Source: Clostridia bacterium
GTDB lineage: Bacteria; Bacillota; Clostridia; Oscillospirales; CAG-272
Reading direction: 5' to 3'
DNA: 64,000 nt
NCBI GenBank assembly: GCA_017399145.1
Contig: JAFQEG010000011.1
Location: 7,306 to 71,305 of the forward strand
Part shown: in pieces, positions 49,955 to 63,586 of the stretch
How positions within the stretch are numbered: the first letter of the stretch is position 1
Layout: every line of letters starts with the position of its first letter
Position numbers and translations under genes: made by a program
The notes under the pieces: generated by a model
Databases searched by the model: none
Seen by the model: only the letters and a program-made list of their open reading frames with translations
Told to the model about the DNA's origin: nothing

Positions 49955-52900
49955 ATGGATATAAAAACCTTTATCAAGGACGCAAACGAAGAATATGTCA
50001 AAATGAAAAGTGACCTTGAGGTTGAAAGAAAGACCCTTTCCGAGGCACTCAAGAAGGCAGAGGACGCTCTAAACAATGAAAGAGAGCGCTTTAGGGCTGA
50101 GGAAAAGGAGCTTCTTAGCGTTTTAGATGCTACCAAAAAGGAAAGAATCGGCGAGATTGAAAGAATTGCTACCGAAAAAATGGATATTCTTAAAGCCGAA
50201 AAGGATAAGATAATAAATAGCGAGGCCTCTCGTAGGCAAAACGTTGAAAATGCCTACAAGGATAGATTTGAGGGACTTGAATCTGAGCATAATGAAAGAC
50301 TAGAGGAGCTTAAGAGAAGATACGAAACTCGCAAAAATCTCGCTAAGCGAGAGTACGAGGAATTAAGACAGGACCTAGAAAGCTCATCGGCTGTGCACGG
50401 GGATATGGACGCTATGCTTGCAAGTCAGCAAAATCGTGACCTGCTAGAGAAAATCGATGAGATTGAGGACAGAAACGTTTTGCTTCGTGCATCTATCAAG
50501 GAGGAGCTTGAAAGCTATAGCGAAAAGCTAACTGAGTATTTAAATCTTAAGGATTTCACCTTTGAGCCACCCTCGAAAAAGGACCTTTTAGAAAGAGCAA
50601 ATAGGTATTACGAAAGCTTAGATGAGCTAAACGTATACAAGGCTAAGCTTCAAAAATCTCAGGGCTGTGATGCCCTTGTTGAGTACAACAAGGCAACCCT
50701 TGAGGAGGCGAAGAAGGAATTTGAAAAGAGCCTTCAGGAAATCGACGAATGGTATTTGCAGGAGCTTGAGGGCGAAAATCGCAAATACACAAAGGAAAAG
50801 AATATCCTAGAAAATCAAAAGAACAATTCTGATGTTGAAAAGCCTGAAATTGCCGAAAGAATCGCTCAAATTGACAAGGAGCTAAAGGAAATTGAGGAAT
50901 CTCTAATTGCTGAAAGTGGCAAGATTATGGAGGACTTGTCAAAAAGCGAGGGCGCTAAGACCAGAATGTTTAACATGATTAAGGCAGAGGAGCTAAGAGT
51001 ACAGGAGGAAGGACTTCAAAAGGCTAAGGAAAGGCTTGATGAGTTTGTTAAGAGTCAAGATAAAAGGCTTGAGGACCTACTAAACAGAATCAAGAAGGAT
51101 TTACAAGAGATAATTGGTAGTGGCAAAGACTTTTCCGTAGGTCAAATAAGAGACGGAAGGGTACGGACCGCCTTGCCGAAGTCAATTGCAATAGGTAGAT
51201 GTGGCACAACTCTTGCACAATGTGAGCTTGTGGAAAGGCTTTACGGTAAGAGTGGGTTAGAAATACCTGCTACCGTAAGCGTTGACGTTTTAGGTGGCGA
51301 GGCATTAATCTTTACCTCGGACAACGAGGAATATCTTGACAGAATTATGGGTGGTATTACTCTTAAATTCTTAGAGGAATTTCCCAAGGAAAGCCTAGGG
51401 GTTAGAATTATTTCCTCTGAAAGAGAAATATTTAACTCAATTGCTAGTGGAATAGCAGAGAATGAAAAATCAACAATTATCAATAAGGACCCACACCCAG
51501 CCCTTACCTTTGCTGATGCAGAGTCAAACAGAATTGCATCTAAGCTAGGCGGGGAGATAAAAAATGCCTTCGACCTTTACGAAAAAGAAAAGGGCAGAGT
51601 CATCACTCTTGTTGTTATTCGTGATGGCATTGAGGAAATCCTAGGGGATAAGGAAATGCTAGCGATTCTTAGAAAGCTTCTTTCTGAAAGAGGAAGAAAT
51701 TCCGGAATTAGATTTATAATTGCTTGCAAGAATACCGAGGAATTAAAGGACCTTTACGAGAGTGGACTTTCTATTTCTATTAAGGGCGAGGACGTGCTTT
51801 ATGGCGAGGAAAAAATTGACATTTGCACTATTCCAAATCAAGATATATCATTCTTTATAAAGGGTGTTTTTTCCGATATAGCATCTCTTAACGAGGGCTT
51901 TGCAGGTGGCGATATTCCTCTTGCTAGCTATTGTGCTAGCCTTGACGAGTTAGACAAGACAGAAAAGGAAGCTAAAAAAAACCAAGTCAATAAAGCCTTT
52001 TCAATAGATGGAAGAATTACCTATGAGGATTTGGGCTTTAACAGTCCTTTTGAGGAAATGGGCGAGGAGTTTGACTTGCCTATTGGCGCAACAGAAAATG
52101 GAATTGCCACAATTAGCTTTGATTGCGGAAATAAGGGTGGACAGAATACAGGTGGACTAGTTGTTGGTGCAACTGCTACCGGAAAATCCTCCCTTCTTAA
52201 TAGTCTTGTTGTAGAGGGCTGTAAGAAATATTCCCCTAAGGACCTTGAATTGTGGCTTTTGGACTTTAAAAAAGAGGGCGCAGTAAACGGATATGTCGAC
52301 TCAAAAATCCCTCATATTAAGGTGCTTAAGCAGGGTGCTAACGAGGACGATATTTATTATATCCTAAGCAACCTATGTGTGGAAATTGAGAGGAGAAGGG
52401 ACCTCTTTGAAGCAACAGGGGCAGGGATAAGACAAGAGAAATTTAAAAACGTATTTGAATATAATGAATTTGTAAGGAAAAATGATGGCTACGGCGACAC
52501 TCTACCTAGAATTGTATTGATTGTCGATGAGGTGCAGGAGCTGTTTCAAAATAAGGAAAACAGCCTAATTGCAGAAATTATGACAATGCTAGCGACAATT
52601 ACGGTAAGAGGTCGATGTATGGGTATCCATACGGTTATGATTGGAAACGGGATATGTCCCGATGATTTTGCTTTTAGAAATGCTTACATTAATCACATTA
52701 AGTGTAAGGTAAGCTTTAGAATGAGTGAGGGTGCATTGAGAGAAGCACAGCTAGGCAAGGAATTTGAGGAAATTAGTCAAGAAATTTCCACCTTACAGCC
52801 TGGTCAAATGTACGTTTCGCTTGGAAACAACATAGTTAAAGCAAAGACTCCTTATGTTAATAGTCAGTGCCTTGAGGAATATCTTGAAGAGATACGCAAG

Positions 52901-53743
52901 AATTTTAAGAATGTAGAAAATAGCAAGAATGACTACTCGTGGTTTATGAAAAATCCAATTTATTCACAAGAGGGCACCTCCCTTGTGATTGGAGAATGCT
53001 TTTACACAGGTAAGCCTGTATATGCAACCTTCAATGATAAAAGGTCGTCACTGGCTGTATTAAGTAAAAATGAGGACGTTCAGTCCCGTATTCTTTCCTC
53101 TATTTTAATAGGGGTAAGTGAGGTAAAGGGGGCAAGGGCGCTTTGCTGTAATGGTGCTAGCATATACGAGGCACTATTTCATAAAACTATAAAGGAAAGG
53201 GCAGGACTAAGCGTAAGAGGCTACGAGAAAACTGATTTTGCCGAGATGATTAAGGACGCATATAGCGAGCTTGTAAGCAGACAAAACAGTAATCAGAAAA
53301 ATGATGCACCTTTATTTGTAATAATCAATGGCTTATCAAGGCTTACTCAATTAGACGGAAGAATATCTAATAACGAGGGACCTAGATTTGCCTCATCCTC
53401 AATCGATAATATTCTTGGAAATAAAATGGGCTTTGTTGTTAGTCAACCACAGGACCATAATATTAGTGTAAGACAGGCTTGTCAGGACTTGATTACACAG
53501 GGCACAGAGGTTGGTATTTACGTTGTTATCTCTGCGGATAGCATAGAAAATTGCACTGAGCTTGTTTCAAAATGTCAGGACGTGGTTGCTACAAATGATA
53601 TTTTAGAGGATTTTGACCTTGAGGGCTGTGGACTTGGCAGACTTGTGCCATTTCTTTCAAAAATAGAAAAGGATGAACACGAAAGCGTGATTTTTACACG
53701 TGGCAATAGCATCGACAAAATAAAACCTATCATCTTTGGATAA
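49955..53743 (+). CDS. FtsK/SpoIIIE (EssC/EccC-like) ATPase with long N-terminal coiled coil, no TM segment
   Basis: About 380-aa K/E-rich coiled coil; central Walker A GATATGKS, KYSPKDLELWLLDFKK, Walker B LIVDEVQELF, RGRCMGIH; flanking degenerate FtsK-like domains. Confidence 0.85.
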   Translation: MDIKTFIKDANEEYVKMKSDLEVERKTLSEALKKAEDALNNERERFRAEEKELLSVLDATKKERIGEIERIATEKMDILKAEKDKIINSEASRRQNVENAYKDRFEGLESEHNERLEELKRRYETRKNLAKREYEELRQDLESSSAVHGDMDAMLASQQNRDLLEKIDEIEDRNVLLRASIKEELESYSEKLTEYLNLKDFTFEPPSKKDLLERANRYYESLDELNVYKAKLQKSQGCDALVEYNKATLEEAKKEFEKSLQEIDEWYLQELEGENRKYTKEKNILENQKNNSDVEKPEIAERIAQIDKELKEIEESLIAESGKIMEDLSKSEGAKTRMFNMIKAEELRVQEEGLQKAKERLDEFVKSQDKRLEDLLNRIKKDLQEIIGSGKDFSVGQIRDGRVRTALPKSIAIGRCGTTLAQCELVERLYGKSGLEIPATVSVDVLGGEALIFTSDNEEYLDRIMGGITLKFLEEFPKESLGVRIISSEREIFNSIASGIAENEKSTIINKDPHPALTFADAESNRIASKLGGEIKNAFDLYEKEKGRVITLVVIRDGIEEILGDKEMLAILRKLLSERGRNSGIRFIIACKNTEELKDLYESGLSISIKGEDVLYGEEKIDICTIPNQDISFFIKGVFSDIASLNEGFAGGDIPLASYCASLDELDKTEKEAKKNQVNKAFSIDGRITYEDLGFNSPFEEMGEEFDLPIGATENGIATISFDCGNKGGQNTGGLVVGATATGKSSLLNSLVVEGCKKYSPKDLELWLLDFKKEGAVNGYVDSKIPHIKVLKQGANEDDIYYILSNLCVEIERRRDLFEATGAGIRQEKFKNVFEYNEFVRKNDGYGDTLPRIVLIVDEVQELFQNKENSLIAEIMTMLATITVRGRCMGIHTVMIGNGICPDDFAFRNAYINHIKCKVSFRMSEGALREAQLGKEFEEISQEISTLQPGQMYVSLGNNIVKAKTPYVNSQCLEEYLEEIRKNFKNVENSKNDYSWFMKNPIYSQEGTSLVIGECFYTGKPVYATFNDKRSSLAVLSKNEDVQSRILSSILIGVSEVKGARALCCNGASIYEALFHKTIKERAGLSVRGYEKTDFAEMIKDAYSELVSRQNSNQKNDAPLFVIINGLSRLTQLDGRISNNEGPRFASSSIDNILGNKMGFVVSQPQDHNISVRQACQDLITQGTEVGIYVVISADSIENCTELVSKCQDVVATNDILEDFDLEGCGLGRLVPFLSKIEKDEHESVIFTRGNSIDKIKPIIFG

Positions 53744-53777
53744 TCGTTAGATTTAAAAGGGATTGGTATGATAATTA

Positions 53778-54722
53778 ATGGAAAACAATAATTTTAATAT
53801 GAATAACAATGATTTAAAGGACTTGGGCTTTTTTGACTTTGTGCCAAAGGGTAAGAATCAGTATACATCAATACCCTTCGGCTTTAAGGAAAATGGAATT
53901 GTAGCCCTTGACCTAGATGAATGGAAAAATGGTGGAATGCTTACGTTAGCAGAGGACATAGATGAGATAGAAGCATTGCAAGAGGCTATTCTGTTAATGG
54001 GCTGTATGAAGTATTCACCAGATGACCTAAGGGTTATGGCTATTAGTAAAAATAGCTCCCTTGCAAGTAATTTGAAGAAATGGGACCTTCCTCACACTAT
54101 AAGCACTATTTGTGTTGGGAATTACTATGACTTTGCAATGGCGCTTGAAAATCTTTTGAATTTTATTAAAAGACGAGACCAAAAGCTACAAATACTAGGA
54201 AAAATAAATAACATTCAGGTGGAAAATATCTTTGAGTTTAATAAAATCGCATTAGAAGACTCAAAAAATTCAATAGCGCCAATGGAAAGAGTAATGGTCT
54301 TTATTGACGACATATACGACATTATTGATACCGCTAGCAAAGAAAGTGATAAAGACGAAATTATGGAAAGGCTAGCCCAGGTTATAATAAGCGGTAAGGA
54401 TGTAGGCGTTTACCTAGTGGCAGGCGCAACACCTAGGGCACAGCTAGACTATAAAATAACTAAGTCGGTTGCCCCTTATGTAAGTACTCTTGGCACCTTT
54501 AGGTTGGAAAATGGACTTGAGGCAGAGTTAAGCCTAGGTGGGGACCTTGAGGGTCACACAGAGGATATAGAGGGATTAGCCAAGGGTCAGCTTTTTTTGG
54601 TGGCTAGCTGTGAAAACGGTAAGAAAAAAAGCCTAGTTAAATTAGCAAAATATGACACCTTGCAAAGAGAGGAATACGTAAGCGCAATAAAGGACAATTA
54701 CTTCTTCTTTCAAAATAATTAA
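53778..54722 (+). CDS. Stand-alone degenerate FtsK-type domain (pseudo-ATPase)
   Basis: IPFG..LDL, KYSPDDLRV, NIFEFN, RVMVFIDDI, GKDVGVYLV, LAKGQ parallel the active domain; no GxxGxGK[S/T]. Confidence 0.75.
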   Translation: MENNNFNMNNNDLKDLGFFDFVPKGKNQYTSIPFGFKENGIVALDLDEWKNGGMLTLAEDIDEIEALQEAILLMGCMKYSPDDLRVMAISKNSSLASNLKKWDLPHTISTICVGNYYDFAMALENLLNFIKRRDQKLQILGKINNIQVENIFEFNKIALEDSKNSIAPMERVMVFIDDIYDIIDTASKESDKDEIMERLAQVIISGKDVGVYLVAGATPRAQLDYKITKSVAPYVSTLGTFRLENGLEAELSLGGDLEGHTEDIEGLAKGQLFLVASCENGKKKSLVKLAKYDTLQREEYVSAIKDNYFFFQNN

Positions 54723-54727
54723 GGGGG

Positions 54728-55717
54728 ATGGGTATGAGCTTTTTTAGTAGAAAAAGAGAAAAATCACAACTCGACGCTAAAAGACTTGAGGGTGTAGGCA
54801 CAAACGAAATAAATCGTGATGGATACTGTCCGCTAGTGTGCAAAATACCGGTTGGTCTTTGCGAAAACGAGATTTACAATTTGGACTTTAGTAGCGAAAG
54901 AGACGCTTGTGCGTCTTATATGATAACAGGAAACAGGGATTCAATAAAGGGACTATTAGACGCAATAATTATAAATGGATCCTTGAAATATACACCAGGT
55001 GAGGTTTCCTTTAGGCTTTATGATACAGAGTCTTATGGAATGCTAGACCCATATGAAAATGCAAGACTTCCACATATCACAAGAATAGGGTCACATATAG
55101 GCGAAAACGAGGCTGTTCACGAGCTATTTAGACTAGCTGACGTAATAAAAAAGCGTGGCGAGCTTTTTAAGTCTCTTGGTGAAAAATGTGGGGTAGAAAT
55201 CAATAATATTTGTGAATATAATTCCTATGCTAAGACCCAAGAAAAGGGCACCTTCAAGCATAAGAAGAGAATTATAGCTGTACTTAACGGAATTAGAAAA
55301 ATTTTAAATTCTCCTCAAGCAGACGAAAGATATGTAAAGCAGGTATGCTATCTTGTTGAGAATATAGCAAAAAGAGGGTCAGCCCTAGGTGTGCATTTGA
55401 TTTTGACAAGCACAGCCTTTTCGAATAGCGAGATTGACAAGCTACTACAAAGCACCTTTGTACAAAGGGCACAGGGAAGAGTGGTCCTTGCGCAAGAAAA
55501 GAGTGAGGCTAAAAGGTTAGACTTTGGTAAGGCCTTTGCTAAGAGAATAAAGGAAATAGCAAGGTTAGGTAAGGGACAAGGCCTTGTGACAGTTGACGGA
55601 AAACGGGTAAGCCTTGTTGATATAGCAACCCTTACACCACTAGAGGAATATATTGAAATGGTAAGCGACTCTGTCTTCTTCTATGAAGAAAAAACCGAGA
55701 AGCTAAGTAAAAAATAG
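54728..55717 (+). CDS. Stand-alone degenerate FtsK-type domain (pseudo-ATPase)
   Basis: IPVG..LDF, KYTPGEVSFRLYD, LPHI, NICEYN, RGSALGVHLIL, LGKGQ; Walker A and B both lost (ITGNRDS; VLNG). Confidence 0.75.
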   Translation: MGMSFFSRKREKSQLDAKRLEGVGTNEINRDGYCPLVCKIPVGLCENEIYNLDFSSERDACASYMITGNRDSIKGLLDAIIINGSLKYTPGEVSFRLYDTESYGMLDPYENARLPHITRIGSHIGENEAVHELFRLADVIKKRGELFKSLGEKCGVEINNICEYNSYAKTQEKGTFKHKKRIIAVLNGIRKILNSPQADERYVKQVCYLVENIAKRGSALGVHLILTSTAFSNSEIDKLLQSTFVQRAQGRVVLAQEKSEAKRLDFGKAFAKRIKEIARLGKGQGLVTVDGKRVSLVDIATLTPLEEYIEMVSDSVFFYEEKTEKLSKK

Positions 55718-55727
55718 GGAAAAGAAA

Positions 55728-55973
55728 ATGACTAAGAATGGCAAGCAAGAGGCGATAGCCTTGATAAACGCACTGAGGACCTGCAAGGATTCGGCAGATG
55801 ACGGAATAAAGAGTGCTTATTACAAAAGCGAGGATTTGCTTTGGGAGGATAAGCAACGTGCTGTTTTTGATAGAAATATTGAGCAGGTAATTAGTATTGC
55901 GATAAATGGAATAAACCTACTTGACAGATATGCCAATGAAATGGAATTGATGGTTAAGGAGGGTGACAAATGA
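55728..55973 (+). CDS. WXG100-like small helical protein (central WxD)
   Basis: 81 aa, helix-turn-helix pattern with central LWEDKQRAVF. Confidence 0.6.
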   Translation: MTKNGKQEAIALINALRTCKDSADDGIKSAYYKSEDLLWEDKQRAVFDRNIEQVISIAINGINLLDRYANEMELMVKEGDK

Positions 55974-56251
55974 GCGAGGCTGATAGAATAGATATGGACG
56001 TGTCAGTTGAGGATTTGGCTTCTGTAAGAGAGCACATAAGCCTTTGCTCAAGAGCATTTTCCACAGCTACTCAAAAAATAGAGGAATATTCAAAAAACGG
56101 AAACGAAAAATATAGCATGTCCAAGGACACTAACGAAAAATCAATGGAGATTTTAGGTGCTACTGCAATGGGAATAAACGGCTTAGCTATACATTTAAGC
56201 AAGCTTGAGGATTACGTTAAGGAATACTTAAGCTGTAAGTATGAGGGGTAG
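55970..56251 (+). CDS. WXG100-like small helical protein (no Trp motif)
   Basis: 93 aa; IDMDVSVEDL N-terminus and C-terminal LEDYVKEYL resemble EsxB-like partners; translationally coupled. Confidence 0.5.
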   Translation: MSEADRIDMDVSVEDLASVREHISLCSRAFSTATQKIEEYSKNGNEKYSMSKDTNEKSMEILGATAMGINGLAIHLSKLEDYVKEYLSCKYEG

Positions 56252-56255
56252 GTGC

Positions 56256-56537
56256 ATGACCTTGAAGAAAATGAAGAAAACCTCCTTAGAGCTTCAATTA
56301 ATTGAGGCAAGCGAAGCCTTTGAAGCACTAAAGCAAGCCTATTCCACAGACTCCTGGAGTGATTCGGTTAAGGAATCCTATGGAAGATTGCTTGACCAAC
56401 AAGAGATAGTGCTTGAAAAATTAAACGACTATACCGAGGCTAAAAGAGATCTTGTGCAGGACGTAGACCTAGAGGATGTTGACAAGCTAATCCAGTTAGC
56501 AAAGGGCGTTTGCGATCAGGCAGGTGACATTAAATGA
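56256..56537 (+). CDS. WXG100-like small helical protein (central WxD)
   Basis: About 93 aa helical protein with DSWSDSVKESY. Confidence 0.55.
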   Translation: MTLKKMKKTSLELQLIEASEAFEALKQAYSTDSWSDSVKESYGRLLDQQEIVLEKLNDYTEAKRDLVQDVDLEDVDKLIQLAKGVCDQAGDIK

Positions 56538-57721
56538 GTAAAAGAAATAATCGTGCCTGTGTTAGCCTAGTTGCAATAGGAAGATTTTACAGTATGCTTT
56601 TAGCCTACAAGAGTGCCCTTGAGGGGGTCCTTCGTGAGGTAGGCGTAAGGGAAGAATACCTAGGTCAAATAGAAAAGGACAAAAAAGCACTAGAAAAAGC
56701 AAAAAATGAATGCGAGTCTAAGATAAACACCTTAGTATCCCTAAGGGCAAGACAGACAAATAGAGAAAAAATAGCAGAATACGACCAGCACATAGCAAGA
56801 ATAAAGGGCGTATCTGGATATATTGATGGTCAGCTTGACCATATTGAAAAAAAGCTACAAAGCTATAATTTACTTGAGAAAAAATCAAGAAATGTAATCG
56901 ATGATGCCTTATCTAAGGTAACCGAGGCAGAAAAAGCATTAAAAAATGCAATAGCGGTAATAAATAGCTACATAACCGAAAGCACGGGCGAAATAAGGCT
57001 TGATTCAATTCCAAGCTTTAAGACAGTACCCTTTGGGGCTGAAAGGGTTGTACCATTTCAGCTATACGATATGCCCCAAATTGTACCGCCTAAGCCCATT
57101 CTTCCAATTGATGACTTTGGTGTTGAATACTATTTTGGGTCCTGTGACTCTCACTTCGGTGATGAGAAAAGGCTTATTAAAAGGCAGGGCAAGGCATACG
57201 AAAATTATCACGGCACCTGTGGACCTACAACCGTTGCTAATATGCTAAGGCTACTTCAAGGAAGAGAGGCAACGGAAAAAGAGGTTTTGGACCTAGCTAT
57301 AAGCATTAATGCTTGTAGACGACCAAGAGATGGTGCAACCGGTGGTGGAACAACAAGCCTTGATATAATAAGAATTTTAGAGTGCTATGGACTAAGGGCT
57401 GCCTGCATAAGAGACGTAAGCCTTGAGGAAATAGACGAATGCTTAAAGAGAAATGGTGCATTAATGATAGCAATACACTCTAGCCACATAAAGGAAAATG
57501 CTAGCATTAATGAAAATCCAGGACCAAAAATTTATACAAATCACTGGGTTTGTGTCCTAGGAGTAAGACGTAGCAAGAGGGACGAGCGAGTAGTTGGACT
57601 CTATCTTTGCGACACAGGTGGACACAATCCAAAGAAAAGCGTTATTTACGTTAGTAGGACTTACTTTGAAATGATGAAGCAAGCCCTAGTTGACTTGTAC
57701 GCAGTTACTGCATTTAAATAA
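56534..57721 (+). CDS. Coiled-coil (LXG-like) protein with C-terminal papain-fold C39-like peptidase; putative effector
   Basis: N-terminal helical bundle about 150 aa; RQG..GTCGPTTVANML (Q, C), NHWVCVLG (H), LYLCDTG (D). Confidence 0.72.
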   Translation: MSKRNNRACVSLVAIGRFYSMLLAYKSALEGVLREVGVREEYLGQIEKDKKALEKAKNECESKINTLVSLRARQTNREKIAEYDQHIARIKGVSGYIDGQLDHIEKKLQSYNLLEKKSRNVIDDALSKVTEAEKALKNAIAVINSYITESTGEIRLDSIPSFKTVPFGAERVVPFQLYDMPQIVPPKPILPIDDFGVEYYFGSCDSHFGDEKRLIKRQGKAYENYHGTCGPTTVANMLRLLQGREATEKEVLDLAISINACRRPRDGATGGGTTSLDIIRILECYGLRAACIRDVSLEEIDECLKRNGALMIAIHSSHIKENASINENPGPKIYTNHWVCVLGVRRSKRDERVVGLYLCDTGGHNPKKSVIYVSRTYFEMMKQALVDLYAVTAFK

Positions 57722-57732
57722 GGGGGGAGAGT

Positions 57733-58176
57733 ATGAGAAGCTATGATTTGGCAAAGCTAGCCATAACCCTATTATCAAATGACGAGTCCTTATCCTTGCC
57801 CTTTCTAAAGAAGAAGGGAGACGGATTAACTCTAGGCTTCTTCACCTTTGGAGAAAAGCTTTATATGGAGGACGGGGCTATTCGTTTAGATAGAGAAATA
57901 TTGTACGTAAACGAAATTTGGGCAATAGACCCAATACTCACATCTGTAAAAAAGACAGAGTGTATAGGGCTTAAGGGCGTGCCCTGCTGGTATAACCCCT
58001 TAGGACAGTGCACAAAAGAGGAATACGAGGACGTTTACTTCGAGTATTGCAAATCAATTGATGAGGTCTTAGAGGGACAGGATAGTGTTGAAAAATACAA
58101 GGACCTTGCAAAAAGAGTTGTGCCTAAACAGCTAATAACTGCATACAAAAGCTGTGGTGCACAATTCCTAGAATAG
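57733..58176 (+). CDS. Hypothetical protein, candidate immunity/partner of the peptidase
   Basis: 147-aa ORF directly downstream of the effector with GGGGGGAG RBS. Confidence 0.5.
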   Translation: MRSYDLAKLAITLLSNDESLSLPFLKKKGDGLTLGFFTFGEKLYMEDGAIRLDREILYVNEIWAIDPILTSVKKTECIGLKGVPCWYNPLGQCTKEEYEDVYFEYCKSIDEVLEGQDSVEKYKDLAKRVVPKQLITAYKSCGAQFLE

Positions 58177-58186
58177 AGGTGATATA

Positions 58187-58858
58187 GTGGATAAGAATAA
58201 AAATGCAGAGGAAAATTTAAAATCACTCTCTTACTTTATGCAGGAAAGAGAAGGTCGCCTTTTTGATGAAATCAAGGAGGAGGCTGTATTTTATAGCAAT
58301 AGAGAAGATGGCGCACGAAAGGAATGCGCAGAGGAAATTGAAAAATTACGAAAAGCAACCGAGGACGAAAGAGAAAGGCTAAATCAAGCTAAGGAAAAGG
58401 CTATCGTTTTAAAACGGATAGCTACTGAAAAGAGGATTAACTCAAAGGGGTTATTTTCTGGACCGGTGCCTAGTCCTGAGTGTGTTGAGGTGGTGGAAAA
58501 AATGTCTTTCATAGCTGGTGAAATTTCCACTCAAGAGGCAAAAAATGCACTTGAGGCTATTTGCAAATATACAAAATCGGCAATGGAAAGAAAAATGGAC
58601 CAAGAGACCCTTGACGAAATTGTTAAGCAGGCAGATAACCTTATTGCTATATGCGAGAAGGATAGCGTAGAAAAGGCGCTTGAATACAAGATAAATCAAC
58701 GTCAGGCGGAAAGAGACCAAAGGCTAAAGCAATACGGGGACAACGTAAGGTCCACTATTGATATAGAGGTTACCCACTACATTGGTAATTTAAGACTAGA
58801 GCTTTTAGGCGAAAAATACGCATTCGGCGAGCCACCTAGAGTGCGCTCGACTAAATAA
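58187..58858 (+). CDS. Hypothetical coiled-coil protein
   Basis: GTG start after GAGGTG; E/K/R-rich helices; no TM. Confidence 0.6.
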   Translation: MDKNKNAEENLKSLSYFMQEREGRLFDEIKEEAVFYSNREDGARKECAEEIEKLRKATEDERERLNQAKEKAIVLKRIATEKRINSKGLFSGPVPSPECVEVVEKMSFIAGEISTQEAKNALEAICKYTKSAMERKMDQETLDEIVKQADNLIAICEKDSVEKALEYKINQRQAERDQRLKQYGDNVRSTIDIEVTHYIGNLRLELLGEKYAFGEPPRVRSTK

Positions 58859-58876
58859 TATGGAAGGGGAAAGCAA

Positions 58877-60211
58877 ATGGAATACAACGAATACGAAAAC
58901 AATCAATTAGAAAACGAGCCGGAAGAGGATAAGGGAATCAACCCACAGGCAAACTCAAATATTAACTACGTGCTAAGGAATTTTGAGGAGGTTGAGGAAA
59001 GCTACGAAAAGGCAAAAAGAGTTCTCACTAAGGAAATGGTTGCTCTTTGGGAAATGATAGCCTATGAAAGAAAACAGGCTGACTTGTACAGAAACAAGGT
59101 GCAGGCAGAGGATGTTATGGGCGTTATTCTTCCATTCTTGTCAGACATTGTAAATGACGTTGAGGATGCAACCGACTTAGACGAGGCAAAGCGAATTGTG
59201 GGAATTTATCTAAGGTCAATGAAAACTCACCTTATGAATATAGGTGTTGAGCTTAAGATGCACACAGAAAACGACGTGCTAGACCCAACCGAAAGAGTTG
59301 GTGGATCCTGTAAGAAGACGGGAGACAAGAGTCTTGACGGTAAAATTGCAAGAACCTCACAAATAGGCTGTGTAATTCACAACGAGGTGCCAACAGAAAT
59401 TCAAGAAAACGTTATTGTATATACATACGACCCAGAGCTTGACAAGGAGTTGCCACCGGATGAGCCACCGGTTGAAGAGGTGCCCGAGGAAAAGTCACCT
59501 GTGATTGACGAATCGGTTGAGGACACACCCGTTGAGGACGCACCAACAGACGAGGAATCTGTTGAGGATATACCCGGTATAAAGCTGTATGAAAACGAGA
59601 TTCAGTTTGTTAACCCAGTAGAGGATAAACCAGTTGAAGACGTACCGGTAGACGATACACCAGTTGAGGACGAACCAGTAGACGATACTCCAGTTGAGGA
59701 CACACCAGTAGACGATACACCAATTGAGGACGAACCAGTTGACGATACTCCGGTTGAGGACGAACCAGTTGACGATACTCCAGCTGAGGATGAACCAGTT
59801 GACGATACTCCAGCTGAGGGTGAACCAGTAGACGATACACCAATTGAAGACGTACCAGTTGAGGACGAACCAGTTAAAGACGACGAGCCAGTCATTAGGG
59901 CAACAGTTGACGAAAACGGAAGATATTTGCTTTGCGAATGCTTTAGAATTATAAGTAACAAGCTAAAGCCCTATACAAGGACTACTTCGTTTAAGCTAAA
60001 TCAAGGATATCCATATTCCTTCAAGGCTAATTCTGTAATTTCTATGTACGTAGGAGACCTTTGTATTGTATCCGAGTACAAAACAGAAAACGAGGAAAGA
60101 CAGCTAAGGGCTTGTGTTGATGAAATGGATGGACAGCTTGTCTTTCTCATAAGAGAGGGCAGAAAAGGCGGAAACGGCGAAATTATTGCACAATTTAAAA
60201 TTATTATATAG
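58877..60211 (+). CDS. GrpE-like protein with long acidic Pro repeat and C-terminal domain
   Basis: Coiled coil, then ILPFLSDI..LMNIGVE..DVLDPTE..TGDKSLDGKIARTSQIG..ENVIVY GrpE-type head; adjacent to Hsp70. Confidence 0.65.
   Translation: MEYNEYENNQLENEPEEDKGINPQANSNINYVLRNFEEVEESYEKAKRVLTKEMVALWEMIAYERKQADLYRNKVQAEDVMGVILPFLSDIVNDVEDATDLDEAKRIVGIYLRSMKTHLMNIGVELKMHTENDVLDPTERVGGSCKKTGDKSLDGKIARTSQIGCVIHNEVPTEIQENVIVYTYDPELDKELPPDEPPVEEVPEEKSPVIDESVEDTPVEDAPTDEESVEDIPGIKLYENEIQFVNPVEDKPVEDVPVDDTPVEDEPVDDTPVEDTPVDDTPIEDEPVDDTPVEDEPVDDTPAEDEPVDDTPAEGEPVDDTPIEDVPVEDEPVKDDEPVIRATVDENGRYLLCECFRIISNKLKPYTRTTSFKLNQGYPYSFKANSVISMYVGDLCIVSEYKTENEERQLRACVDEMDGQLVFLIREGRKGGNGEIIAQFKIII
59620..59890 (+). 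repeat. 15/30-nt coding tandem repeat (DDTP[VIA]-EDEPV)
   Basis: About 18 pentapeptide units, e.g. GACGATAC(A/T)CCAGTTGAGGACGAACCAGT. Confidence 0.9.
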
Positions 60212-60239
60212 GATTTGTTAAAAACGGAGGAAAATTAAA

Positions 60240-61796
60240 ATGATTATCGGAATAGACTTTGGAACTTGCTTTTCATCAATAGCGATTATGAACGGATTAA
60301 TTCCTGTTACCAACTTTGGTACAACAGGTGATGCAAGAGGAATACCTACACTATTCATGTTCTCTAAGGCACTTAATACAGAGCTTTATGGCACAGACTG
60401 CGAAATCGGTGAGGCGGTTGTTAATAGTAAAGAGGTTGTTCGATATATGAAGAAGATTGTAAGACAAAATCCTAACAATCTTAATGCAACAATCAGGACA
60501 AATGGTAAGGACTACACAATTAAAGAGATATTAAAGAAGTATCTTGCATTCCTTTTGGCTAAGGCTAAGGACAACGCAAGAAGAATTGGTGAAATCTCTA
60601 ACCTTGATTTTGAAAGAATTGCAATTACTGCCCCTGTTGGTATCGCTGAGGGTCAAATGACTGCAACAGACTACAACCAATTGCTAGTTGACACAGTAGT
60701 TGAAATTACAGGCGTTAGCAAGGATAAGGTAAGCATTATTCAAGAGCCAGTTGGCGCAGCTATGGCATACCTTTACAGTGACGATTTAAGAAGAATTTAC
60801 TCAAAGAAGCAAACCATTATGGTATTCGACCTAGGTGGTGGTACACTTGACGTAACTATTCTCGAGCATGACCCATACCTAAAGGAATACTCAATTAAGG
60901 ACAAGGACGGCGACCTTCAGCTAGGTGGTAACGATTGGGACCAAGCGCTAGCAGGTCTAGTTATGAAGAAGTCCGGTGCCACAGGTGACATTCTTGACCC
61001 AGAGGAAAAGAGCAAGTTTATATCTAAGGTTGTACGTCTAAAGGAAGACCTAACACCAAATGTAGCTGGTGAAATTTTCTTCAAGAAGGAAGGAAAAAGC
61101 TACTTTGCTGACGTAACAAGAGCGGAATTTGAATCAGCATCTAAGCCACTACTTGACAATGCGGTTAAGGTTGTAAAAAGAGTGCTTGGTAGATACAAGG
61201 GCACAATTGACAAGATTGTACTTGTTGGTGGTGCTTCCAATATGCCACAGATTGAAGCAAGACTAAAGAGCGAATTTGCTAACATTGTAAATGGCGAGGA
61301 AAATATCTTTAGATTTGACCCATCTAAGGCAATTTCAAAGGGTGCTGCAGTTTATGCAATGAAGCTTGAGGAGGACGACGGCGACAACAGGGCAAAGCCA
61401 AAGGATATTCTATCTCACACCTATGGCGTTGACTCACACAAGGACGGTGTTCATATGATTTACAACATTCTTTACAAGGGTGAATCAAAGCCAGCCTCAG
61501 CCACAGCAGCTACAACCTTTATGCCAAGAGAGGATAGCCAAACAAAGGCTGCATTTACAGTTTACGAGTCCGATGCAATTCGCACAGGAGACGATTCTAA
61601 CTCTAACTGGGTTAGCCTATCAGCAGGCAACTCAAATGGTATTAGAGTTACCGTTGACGTACCACAGGAATACCTAGGTAGAGCAACAAAGTTTGAAATT
61701 ACCCCTGAGCTTAGCATTGATGAAAACGAAATTCTTACTATCAACGTAAGAGACAGCAAGGGCAAAATCATCGGTACAGAAAAGAAACAGCTTTAA
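60240..61796 (+). CDS. Hsp70 family protein (non-canonical, lacks the C-terminal helical lid)
   Basis: IGIDFGT, EPVGAA, VFDLGGGTLDV, LGGNDWD, LVGGASNMP, AISKGAA; only 518 aa. Confidence 0.92.
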   Translation: MIIGIDFGTCFSSIAIMNGLIPVTNFGTTGDARGIPTLFMFSKALNTELYGTDCEIGEAVVNSKEVVRYMKKIVRQNPNNLNATIRTNGKDYTIKEILKKYLAFLLAKAKDNARRIGEISNLDFERIAITAPVGIAEGQMTATDYNQLLVDTVVEITGVSKDKVSIIQEPVGAAMAYLYSDDLRRIYSKKQTIMVFDLGGGTLDVTILEHDPYLKEYSIKDKDGDLQLGGNDWDQALAGLVMKKSGATGDILDPEEKSKFISKVVRLKEDLTPNVAGEIFFKKEGKSYFADVTRAEFESASKPLLDNAVKVVKRVLGRYKGTIDKIVLVGGASNMPQIEARLKSEFANIVNGEENIFRFDPSKAISKGAAVYAMKLEEDDGDNRAKPKDILSHTYGVDSHKDGVHMIYNILYKGESKPASATAATTFMPREDSQTKAAFTVYESDAIRTGDDSNSNWVSLSAGNSNGIRVTVDVPQEYLGRATKFEITPELSIDENEILTINVRDSKGKIIGTEKKQL

Positions 61797-61804
61797 TAAG
61801 AAAA

Positions 61805-61830
61805 AGAGAGTGCATTTTGCACTCTCGTTT
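61805..61830 (+). terminator. Probable weak terminator or processing hairpin
   Basis: GAGAGTGCA-TTT-TGCACTCTC-GTTTC with a poor U-tract. Confidence 0.55.
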
Positions 61831-61892
61831 CTGTCAATATGCGTAAAACACTGGGAGAAGTGTTTGATTTTGTCATTTTAAGGAGAAAACAA

Positions 61893-62459
61893 ATGAGCGT
61901 TGTTGTTGCAATAAAAAAGGACGGAGTCGTTTATATGGGTGCCGACACCCAAACGACTAGTGGAATACAAAGACGAAATTACCTAAAGGAAAGCAATCTT
62001 AAAATAGCCACCTTCGACAATGGAATGATTATTGGCCACGTGGGGGCGGTTTCCAGAAAAAGTATTCTTTTTCACTCTAAAAATATAATTCCTAAGCTAA
62101 AAATACCAAAAGAGGGCTTGACAAAAAAGGTTATTTACGAGCAACTAATACCTATGCTTCGTGACCAAGACGTGTTTTTCGACAAGGAGGAGGCAGAGGT
62201 GGACGCAAGCATGCTTATAGGCTATGGGGATAAGCTGTTTCGCGTAAGAAATGAGAGTGTTACTGAAATTAATGAGTATAGCTGCATAGGGTCTGGTGTC
62301 GATTTTGCTTGGGCTGTGATGGAAATTTATCACGAAAGGCTCGACCCTGTGTCGCTTTTAGATAAGGCAATGAGGGCATCCGCCAACAAAATTTCCTCGG
62401 TAAGTGGGCCATTTGTGTTTGTAAATACCAAGGACAGAAAAATTGAGGTGAGAGAATGA
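61893..62459 (+). CDS. Proteasome beta/HslV-like Ntn hydrolase (Ser1 nucleophile candidate)
   Basis: M-SVVVAIKKDGVVYMGADTQTT, NLKI, IIGHVG, CIGSGVDFA, SVSGPF; AGGAG RBS before ATG 61893. Confidence 0.8.
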   Translation: MSVVVAIKKDGVVYMGADTQTTSGIQRRNYLKESNLKIATFDNGMIIGHVGAVSRKSILFHSKNIIPKLKIPKEGLTKKVIYEQLIPMLRDQDVFFDKEEAEVDASMLIGYGDKLFRVRNESVTEINEYSCIGSGVDFAWAVMEIYHERLDPVSLLDKAMRASANKISSVSGPFVFVNTKDRKIEVRE

Positions 62460-63040
62460 TTGCGATTAAGGAAAATGGCGTAATTTATTTAGCTTATTCG
62501 CCTGTAAGTATGTATTGCTGGGGCTACTCTGACGAAAAAACACTCTTAGAGGAGGAAAACCTTTTTACCTTCGTAGCTGATGAGGAAAGAGGTGTAATTG
62601 CCGGCGTATCTCGTTATATGCCAAGGGCGGACGCAATAAGATACAATCTTAAGGGATGCTTTAATCTTGATGTTTATATGATGGGTGCTTGCTTAGAGGT
62701 CCAAAAGAAAATCGACGAGATTTTTGAGAAAAAGGGCTTTTATAACGGGGAGAAGCAACGAGAAAAGAATGAAAAAACTAAGATTTTTATAGCCCAAGAG
62801 GACAGAGGCTTTATATATAATCCCGTTGACAAGGACTGGATTGCCCTAGACGATGGAATAAATGCATGTATATCAAATGATATCTTTGAAAGTGCTTATG
62901 ATGCTTGCTATGAAATTGAGGATATTTACGAAAAAATAAAGCAAATTTTTCGCTTGTTTGGAAGGCAAGTTGACGAGATAGTCTTTCCTGTGGTGGCCCT
63001 TGACACAAAAACTAAAAAGCATAGGGTTATATGGGGGTAA
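62456..63040 (+). CDS. Divergent proteasome-beta-like paralog (probably non-catalytic)
   Basis: MIAIKENGVIYLAY, ENL, KIFIAQEDRGF, FPVVALDTK parallel the first paralog; lacks Thr/Ser1 and GSG. Confidence 0.55.
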   Translation: MIAIKENGVIYLAYSPVSMYCWGYSDEKTLLEEENLFTFVADEERGVIAGVSRYMPRADAIRYNLKGCFNLDVYMMGACLEVQKKIDEIFEKKGFYNGEKQREKNEKTKIFIAQEDRGFIYNPVDKDWIALDDGINACISNDIFESAYDACYEIEDIYEKIKQIFRLFGRQVDEIVFPVVALDTKTKKHRVIWG

Positions 63041-63043
63041 GAG

Positions 63044-63586
63044 ATGATTATAGCATTTAAGAAAAATGATATTGTATATCTTGGATACGACCAATACATA
63101 AAATTTGAAGAGGCAGGCCATACCCTTAATGCAAAGGAAAACTCTAAGGTTATCAAAAAATATAATGATGCGCTAGCTGGTGCTAGCGGACCTCTTGCAC
63201 TTAACAATTTTATGAGAACTGCAAATTGGCTTGTTGTAGAGGACGAAAAGCTTGAATACGACCAGCTTTTTGTCAATTTACTTGTTAGCTTTAGGGACAG
63301 ACGTGACCTTGTGGCTGATTCTAGAATTATAATTGCCTACAAGGATAAGCTATTCTTATTCCGTGAGGGCATGGACCTTTTTGAATTGGACGATTTTTGC
63401 GCCTGTGGTACAGGTGAGCAATACGCAATCGGCTATTTGTATATGAATTTTGACAAGGAAAACGACCCGGAAAAGCTAATGAAGGACACCTTTGCATACG
63501 TAAGAAAAAGAGTAACCAACATAGGCAAGGATATTGTACTTGTTAACACGAGGGACCTTGAGTTTGTGGAGGTGAAAAAATGCTAA
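63044..63586 (+). CDS. Proteasome-beta/HslV-like paralog lacking the N-terminal nucleophile
   Basis: MIIAFKKNDIVYLGYDQ, ENSKV, LAGASG, IIIAYKDKLF, ACGTGEQYAIG, IVLVNTRD. Confidence 0.7.
   Translation: MIIAFKKNDIVYLGYDQYIKFEEAGHTLNAKENSKVIKKYNDALAGASGPLALNNFMRTANWLVVEDEKLEYDQLFVNLLVSFRDRRDLVADSRIIIAYKDKLFLFREGMDLFELDDFCACGTGEQYAIGYLYMNFDKENDPEKLMKDTFAYVRKRVTNIGKDIVLVNTRDLEFVEVKKC

Follow-up and report, generated by a model that had tools for sequence, protein, structure and literature searches.

An operon headed by a membrane-less ATPase

The window analyzed here is a 64,000-nucleotide stretch of DNA from a Clostridia bacterium (Oscillospirales, CAG-272; contig JAFQEG010000011.1), and our subject is three consecutive open reading frames on its + strand at 49955-53743, 53778-54722, and 54728-55717. 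They encode an FtsK/EssC-like ATPase of 1262 aa, here called the motor, and two single-domain proteins of 314 aa (p314) and 329 aa (p329). The gaps between the genes are 34 bp (motor/p314) and 5 bp (p314/p329), and purine-rich sequence lies 5' of the starts. The three genes open a series of 11 that runs from 49955 to 61796 without large gaps, in the order motor, p314, p329, three small helical genes, coiled coil plus C39 peptidase, 147-aa gene, p223, GrpE-like gene, and Hsp70 gene. A predicted hairpin at 61806..61826 follows and is likely to be the end of an 11-gene operon. A promoter scan gave hits at chance level (39 versus 32 ± 6). The features of the motor and the free domains are as follows.

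49955..53743, + strand: motor, three-domain FtsK/EssC-like ATPase of 1262 aa without membrane segments, made up of a predicted coiled coil, D1 (inactive), D2 (active), and D3 (inactive)
49955..51109, + strand: N-terminal predicted coiled coil of the motor, ~385 aa, from composition only
51167..51889, + strand: D1, degenerate FtsK-fold domain without Walker A
52022..52909, + strand: D2, intact ATPase domain with Walker A at 52166-52189, Walker B (D858-E859), and R887
52967..53740, + strand: D3, degenerate FtsK-fold domain
53778..54722, + strand: p314, free D2-type pseudo-ATPase, assigned by sequence
54728..55717, + strand: p329, free D2-type pseudo-ATPase, assigned by sequence and predicted fold

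The motifs GATATGKS (residues 738-745) and LIVDE (D858-E859) both lie in the middle domain of the motor, D2, whose Walker A is the sole GxxxxGK[ST] sequence across the motor, p314, and p329. Pfam FtsK_SpoIIIE matches motor residues 734-897 (E = 2e-16). The NCBIfam EccC/EssC models match all three proteins far under their cut-offs; for TIGR03928 the motor scores 49 bits against a cut-off of 778. An AlphaFold2 model of motor residues 390-1262 (17-row alignment, predicted local distance difference test (pLDDT) score 77) contains three α/β domains, and its alignment to the ATPase domains of EccC 4nh0, three in number, spans 686 residues (Z-score of 25); the root mean square deviation is 21 because domain placement differs. 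The same model aligns 475-486 residues with D2+D3 structures. Motifs and model agree with the original prediction that one intact domain is flanked by two degenerate ones.

Profile comparison placed D2 closest to ATPase1 of EssC/EccC (hhalign 99.9%, E = 6.5e-35 versus EssC D1), and the best match of D3 was EssC D2 (95%). By position D1 could be the D0/DUF domain of EssC, but its profile match is 9.5% to D0 versus 94% to EssC D2, and this assignment is unsupported. The N-terminal region consists to 60% of the residues EKRQLA and to 2.9% of Pro plus Gly, a composition from which we infer a coiled coil. The helical composition, the absence of an FHA match, and a hydropathy maximum of 1.32 in the motor agree with the earlier proposal that a coiled coil of about 380 aa stands in place of the FHA and membrane segments of EssC. 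The motor thus has no FHA domain and no membrane helices, and it does not conform to canonical T7SSb EssC (FHA, two membrane helices, D0-D3; T7SS, type VII secretion system). No membrane helix was found in the 14 proteins of the locus that were scanned (highest 19-residue hydropathy 1.45). The motor belongs to the three-domain "mobile T7SS" ATPases, a family defined by three FtsK/HerA domains with Walker A and B in the middle one only, and it is membrane-less. Three-domain ATPases linked to WXG100 proteins are widespread: the top 150 results of a wider homologue search include 144 new proteins, and 79 of these are membrane-less, 900-1400 aa long, and carry one Walker A. The architecture of the motor is already published (Zhang 2012; Bell 2024), and the two free genes are the new part.

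Origin, degeneration, and conservation of the free domains

Both free proteins contain the motifs named in the original prediction (KYSPDDL/KYTPGEV, NIFEFN/NICEYN, and GKDVGVYL/GSALGVHL), and Pfam FtsK_SpoIIIE matches p314 and p329 under its cut-off (E = 1e-3 and 6e-3). An AlphaFold2 model of p329 (13 rows, pLDDT 86) matches EccC 4nh0 and FtsK with E values of about 2.6e-12 to 4e-12. For p314 the FtsK fold was assigned from sequence (phmmer E = 5e-24 to D2; 87 bits with the family D2 profile), and there was no PDB sequence match at E ≤ 1. The two genes are therefore free-standing copies of the FtsK fold as originally predicted, p329 by predicted fold and p314 by sequence, and the alternative that they lack an FtsK/RecA-like fold fails on the p329 model.

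In an all-against-all phmmer comparison, p314 and p329 matched D2 (E = 5e-24 and 2e-23) and each other (E = 3e-20), whereas matches to D1 and D3 had E > 0.01. Identity to D2 is 21-25%. In trees both fall in the starred clade of family D2 domains, which includes the D2 of the window (support of 97 in a 37-row tree and of 98, for 68 rows, in a 145-row FastTree). A placement of each free domain as direct sister of the window's D2 was not retained: its support was 80 in the 37-row tree, and the 145-row FastTree left it unresolved as a loose long-branch grouping. These sequence comparisons indicate that p314 and p329 derive from the active middle-domain type and not from the degenerate domains.

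The claim that both had lost Walker A is exact for p314, which keeps the Walker B-like hhhhD[DE]. It does not hold for p329, where the G and K at positions 1 and 7 of Walker A are kept in 6 of 6 sequences; the sixth glycine is replaced, and in the model the Walker A loop is collapsed and the helix begins early. In p329 it is Walker B that is lost, with NG or ID there. Both proteins are without the arginine that follows a conserved glycine in D2, R887, which we take to be the trans finger arginine of EccC and FtsK. At the R887 position, three of four distinct p314 sequences have K and one has S; the residue in p329 is S, T, or A. Judged by these motifs, the two proteins have degenerated differently: p329 kept the Walker A lysine and lost Walker B, and p314 did the reverse. 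A complex prediction of D2-D3 (685-1262) with p329 (score 0.01, mark 0.32) was used neither for nor against any reading.

Ratios of nonsynonymous to synonymous substitution rates (dN/dS) were obtained against the orthologous locus of genome G033, at a dS of about 1.1, which is near saturation. The value for p329 was 0.22 (confidence interval 0.16-0.31) versus 0.19 for D2 and 0.09 for the Hsp70; the N-terminus, the best conserved region of the motor, has 75% identity and a dN/dS of 0.11. Among the 40 of 66 differences listed for run X13, synonymous changes account for 6 of 6 altered codons in p314 and for 8 of 13 in p329. Run X16 contains a 22-base "joint" that leaves out 53793-56077, which was discounted for its shortness. 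Five p329 homologs were found among 2824 candidates (99, 78, 65, 54, and 54% identical by global alignment, 302-328 aa) and three p314 homologs among 1367 (96, 71, and 52%, 298-314 aa); the wider homologue search adds a 234-aa p314 relative, P0038. Because the dN/dS of p329 is 0.22 and orthologs in relatives are essentially full length down to 52-54% identity, neither gene reads as decaying, and the pseudogene alternative raised with the original prediction failed.

In EccC, the tail of a WXG100 protein binds a hypervariable pocket between β4 and α2 of ATPase3; on ATPases 1 and 2 this pocket binds the inter-domain linker and is inhibitory (described in part of PMC6954902). We mapped this pocket onto p314, p329, and D2 via residue offsets from EccCb1 numbering, not by superposition, with 4-5 sequences per set and columns that are not independent. 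Conservation of the pocket-equivalent segments was 0.78 versus a mean of 0.56 in p329, where they are also basic, and 0.43 versus 0.54 in p314. The C-terminal helix scored 0.73 in p329, 0.90 in p314, and 0.45 in D2. The conservation pattern leans toward different roles for p314 and p329.

Relatives, neighboring genes, and known systems

The 50 genomes of the genus contain 16 intact cassettes of the motor family, in 12 genomes. An adjacent free domain is present in four of these cassettes and absent from 12, so that free domains are dispensable. Two genomes, G033 and G062, have loci orthologous to the window's at the same chromosomal site. G033 has the motor, an intact p329, p223, the GrpE-like gene, and the Hsp70; its p314 is cut to the last 19 codons, the three small genes and the C39 gene are gone, and the 147-aa gene is frameshifted. 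In G062 only the motor, a shortened p223, the GrpE-like gene, and the Hsp70 remain, with neither free domain. Genomes G022 and G032 have the layout motor, free domain, small genes, C39 protein, and no close match to the Hsp70. Their free domains lie among WXG100-like genes, keep Walker A, and go with another D2 clade (support of 99 in each tree). One common origin for every free domain was rejected (approximately unbiased test, p = 0.00015, on a quick tree with long branches and a group named post hoc). The free domains arose at least twice and are optional accessories. Single-domain D2 proteins with Walker A also occur in the wider homologue search (P0034, P0057, P0079, and P0097), some of which may be fragments.

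Walker-dead free domains were found only in the ATPase subtype with a dedicated Hsp70. Outside the genus none was found in 400 genomes of the order at E ≤ 1e-20, nor in 398 scored genomes of the class at E ≤ 1e-12, both strict searches that scored few candidates in each genome. Four matches to short frames, none of them a cassette-linked free domain, were set aside: a broken three-domain gene, a membrane-bearing ATPase, a SpoIIIE-like contig-end fragment, and an isolated ORF. Animal gut metagenomes carry the stretch at least partly in 20 rows from 10 studies, and half or more of it in 13 rows, and two of the rows could be where it came from; a metagenome scan for loci returned one locus, unrelated.

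The remaining features of the operon are as follows.

55728..55973, + strand: 81-aa helical protein, weakly WXG100-like, with W-E-D at the hairpin position
55970..56251, + strand: 93-aa helical protein, WXG100-like
56256..56537, + strand: 93-aa helical protein, WXG100-like; the longest ORF begins at 56241
56534..57721, + strand: 395-aa protein, helical N-terminus joined to a C39-like peptidase of papain type that has C, H, and D residues; predicted effector
57733..58176, + strand: 147-aa putative immunity protein, a role suggested by position
58187..58858, + strand: p223, 223-aa helical protein of no known family
58877..60211, + strand: 444-aa protein with a conserved, faintly GrpE-like N-terminal part, an acidic Pro-rich repeat, and a C-terminal domain
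60240..61796, + strand: 518-aa Hsp70-family protein specific to the cassette
61806..61826, no strand assigned: terminator-like hairpin 3' of the Hsp70 gene, a consensus match only, with the T-run better on the minus strand

The 81-aa protein matches a Pfam WXG100 protein of genome G024 (E = 0.005), but its similarity is weak, its family-profile score being reached by 34 of 300 shuffles; the corresponding counts for the 93-aa proteins at 55970..56251 and 56256..56537 were 4 and 1 of 300. In related cassettes, 8 of 42 proteins scanned match WXG100 at E < 0.05, two of them above the cut-off. The C39 match of the 395-aa protein (E = 9e-5) is just below the cut-off, and those of its relatives are above it. 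A 147-aa gene directly follows the C39 gene in the window and in G022. p223 gave no match in Pfam, NCBIfam, or the ESM Atlas (best 0.76), and it is kept, whole or shortened, in all three orthologous loci. The 444-aa protein has no Pfam GrpE match, and its comparison with the genome's own GrpE (hhalign E = 0.037) is a faint lead only. Its acidic Pro-rich repeat (PVED/DTPVED type, 59400-59900) accompanies ortholog lengths of 444, 384, and 349 aa. The Hsp70 is 80-91% identical in G033 and G062, and a close match is found in 3 of the 50 genus genomes, exactly the three that carry the window's ATPase subtype. Beyond the operon, four tandem HslV/proteasome-beta-like genes occupy 61839-63586 and continue into L032:4886-5467. 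Two are recognized by weak TIGR03692 and Pfam matches and the other two by mutual similarity; most are without a catalytic N-terminal threonine at the start. They are kept in G033 (dN/dS 0.09-0.24) and missing at the same site in G062.

The source genome has a second cassette of the motor family on contig C43 (L025:6048-14377), with a 1050-aa motor, four WXG100-like genes, a 459-aa helical protein, a Listeria-Bacteroides repeat protein, and no free domain. At five other loci (L027, L028, L029, L046, and L051), 5-9 zinc-ribbon plus BspA leucine-rich-repeat genes separate the motor from WXG100-like genes; these arrays differ between genus genomes and resemble a diversifying sensor array. A 1471-aa motor variant of genome G262 (L057:8803-17935) has its first inactive domain doubled and adjoins WXG100-like genes and a ubiquitin-E2-like gene (label by eye); about ten D1-D1-D2-D3 proteins occur in the wider homologue search. 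The same search contains proteins of 2300-3100 aa (P0020-P0031) with 6-9 FtsK domains in tandem, almost all of which have Walker A. By eye, the motor adjoins a kinase-like gene and a helical plus C39 protein in G299 (L058:2823-8800), and lies near TerY-like VWA, phosphatase, and kinase genes at L049, recalling the TerY-P link of Bell 2024.

The closest published descriptions come from two sources. Zhang et al. 2012 (PMC3482391, Table 1 note 6) describe, as mobile T7SS versions, solo WXG proteins accompanied by a YueA-like ATPase that has three HerA/FtsK domains, the central one alone being active. The window shares the three domains, the active middle, the small WXG100-like neighbors, and the patchy distribution. 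However, that passage lists Gram-negative lineages whereas the window's cassette is in Clostridia, and it does not mention the free extra domains, Hsp70, or GrpE-like partner, all of which this cassette has. In the relevant part of Bell et al. 2024 (PMC11090510), the EssC-like ATPase of Type III-A CoCoNuT extensions has an N-terminal coiled coil replacing FHA and membrane helices and is accompanied by two WXG100 genes and a coiled-coil nuclease; Anantharaman 2012 is cited there for stand-alone copies. Shared with the window are the long coiled coil (predicted in the window), an active site in D2 only, small genes that in the window are candidate WXG100 genes, a coiled-coil-fused enzyme, and a small gene after it. 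The effector differs, being a C39 peptidase in the window and a D-ExK nuclease in CoCoNuT III-A. No VWA/McrBC genes or D-ExK nuclease were seen beside the window's cassette, whose neighbors are glycoside hydrolases, the C39 peptidase, Hsp70, and HslV-like genes, and it does not conform to CoCoNuT III-A. The window also has two free pseudo-ATPases and a separate Hsp70, whereas the rows of the Bell supplement list ATPase domains 1-3 of one protein only.

By analogy, ESX-1 EccCa1/EccCb1 may serve as a "works like" model for the free domains, as a separate soluble FtsK-fold polypeptide that reads cargo for a motor: the ATPase3 pocket of EccCb1 binds the EsxB tail (passages of PMC6954902). EccCb1 was born by gene split, comprises ATPases 2+3, binds ATP, and is required. 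In the window the motor is whole, with its own D2 and D3, and the free proteins are single, optional, extra ATPase1-like D2 copies, which does not fit an EccCa/EccCb split. T7SSb EssC/YukB and T7SSc-j (Garrett et al. 2024, PMC11217815, in part) share the FtsK-type motor, small proteins that in the window are WXG100-like, and effector plus immunity layout; unlike them, the window has no FHA, no membrane helices, no EssB/YukD match, and NCBIfam scores far under cut-off. The EssB (YukC) and EsaB (YukD) families gave no matches in the source genome, which is 76% complete. Extra membrane-less ATPase sequence beside cargo genes is also seen in Listeria, where the second essC copies are truncated multi-domain pseudogenes that start mid-domain without a start codon (PMC10327511, in part), and in the membrane-less EssC2 of Enterococcus faecalis (10.1101/2020.05.11.077669, in part); unlike the window's, both accompany a full membrane T7SSb. 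The open-access literature and the Bell supplement gave no account of free pseudo-ATPase partners or of a dedicated Hsp70 for this motor family; Anantharaman 2012, the supplements of Zhang 2012, and the majority of subscription papers lay outside this scope and might list them. No experimental test of the three-domain WXG100-linked ATPases was found in the literature searched.

Possible roles of the free domains

The pocket and helix conservation, the loss pattern in G033, and the apparent lack of an ATPase3 equivalent therefore favor, at rather less than even confidence, p314 and p329 as conserved, catalytically degenerate D2 copies that dock on a predicted hexameric motor as an optional tier for reading or holding cargo. 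In this mechanism D2 would be the sole ATP-hydrolyzing tier of a motor in which ATPase1 and ATPase2 of EssC probably have counterparts but ATPase3, the WXG100-signal tier of EccC, has no clear one. The conserved C-terminal helices would attach p314 and p329. With its invariant basic pocket region, p329 would bind a constant partner, either the motor or the chaperone module, whereas p314, with its variable pocket region, would recognize the WXG100-like/C39 cargo encoded at the locus itself. Folding or loading, of cargo or of the motor, would be the task of the dedicated Hsp70 and the GrpE-like protein. A link to cargo is supported by G033, which lost p314 together with the cargo genes and kept p329. 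A more specific version, a cytoplasmic T7SS-derived machine with an Hsp70/GrpE-like pair whose cargo tier is made of separately encoded dead copies, p329 as constant dock and p314 as variable reader, appears unlikely to us.

Several observations weigh against this cargo-reading tier. Of the 12 genus cassettes without a free domain, most of those with flanks in view still have small helical genes, and the motor must therefore read cargo without free domains. Dead adaptors are not a general rule, because the free domains of G022 and G032 and P0034, P0057, P0079, and P0097 keep Walker A. The three small proteins of the window have no W-x-G and no Pfam WXG100 match. D2 is also somewhat conserved at the pocket (0.65 versus 0.53), under the same offset mapping and 4-5 sequences; the variability of the p314 pocket may be relaxed constraint, and the co-loss of p314 and cargo is that of one lineage. 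The register of D1 and D3 is weak, D1 too matching EssC D2 best and not D0. Descent from a ring-forming catalytic type is as compatible with a ring subunit as with a distal tier. Cargo export without any membrane component is unexplained, and handling inside the cell is equally possible.

A subunit of the ring is what a brake would require: free D2 copies, without P-loop or Walker B and without the trans arginine, would join the D2 ring and damp hydrolysis until a trigger displaces them. Origin from the catalytic D2 type, replacement of R887 in both proteins, and the dominant-negative behavior of Walker-dead EssC in S. aureus (PMC9436818, in part) fit such a brake, which we nonetheless think improbable: at 21-25% identity to D2 they may no longer fit at the ring interfaces, conservation is highest in the C-terminal helix and, for p329, in the pocket region, a simple brake would not need two copies that degenerated in different ways, and free domains elsewhere keep Walker A. 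We give similarly low credence to an intracellular conflict system without secretion, in which the dead copies would absorb or detect proteins that phages or competitors direct against the motor; the Hsp70 and GrpE-like protein would be the switch and the C39 peptidase the effector. It would account for the absence of membrane helices from the operon proteins and of EssB or YukD matches from the incomplete genome, for the patchy, loss-prone distribution (12 of 50 genus genomes), and for the persistence of motor, p223, GrpE-like gene, and Hsp70 without WXG100-like genes in G033 and G062. Relatives of the motor extend CoCoNuT defense operons (Bell 2024, PMC11090510, in part), and other NTP-dependent conflict systems also include inactive FtsK domains and Hsp70/GrpE (PMC7159879, in part). 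However, decoys that face invaders should diversify and p329 is as constrained as D2; moreover, the WXG100-like, peptidase, and immunity layout fits export.

Less probable again is that the free domains serve the Hsp70, GrpE-like protein, and p223, for example as motor assembly factors, and have nothing to do with cargo choice. The restriction of Walker-dead free domains to the Hsp70-carrying subtype and the retention of p329 with Hsp70 after cargo loss in G033 point that way, but G062 keeps Hsp70 and motor without either free domain, and in G022 and G032 free domains are present and a close match to the Hsp70 is missing. Duplicates in decay, or silent cassettes for recombination comparable to the truncated second essC of Listeria, are largely refuted and now seem very improbable. 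Deletion of p314 in G033 and the loss of both free domains in G062 would be expected of them; p329's low dN/dS and the essentially full-length orthologs at 52-96% (p314) and 54-99% (p329) identity would not. Both genes have their own start codons and a complete domain and are too diverged from D2 for recombination, whereas the Listeria copies are without a start and begin mid-domain (PMC10327511).

The original prediction described the stand-alone pseudo-ATPases as swappable substrate adaptors or regulators of the ring. Functional pseudo-ATPase partners are supported; swapping is not, as the free domains are inherited with the cassette and sometimes deleted, and no exchanged alleles were seen. 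p314 and p329 may be adaptors or ring regulators.

The cassette is a real, conserved, lineage-restricted variant of a known system. It is all soluble, compact, and naturally modular, with relatives that have zero, one, or two free domains, with or without cargo. It is thus convenient for studying how a type VII-like motor works without a membrane part, the function of non-catalytic FtsK domains, and possible export by the machine. On the more specific and unlikely version of the cargo-reading tier given above, gain and loss of free middle-domain copies, which arose more than once in the family, would be a general way to re-aim a motor that itself stays unchanged.

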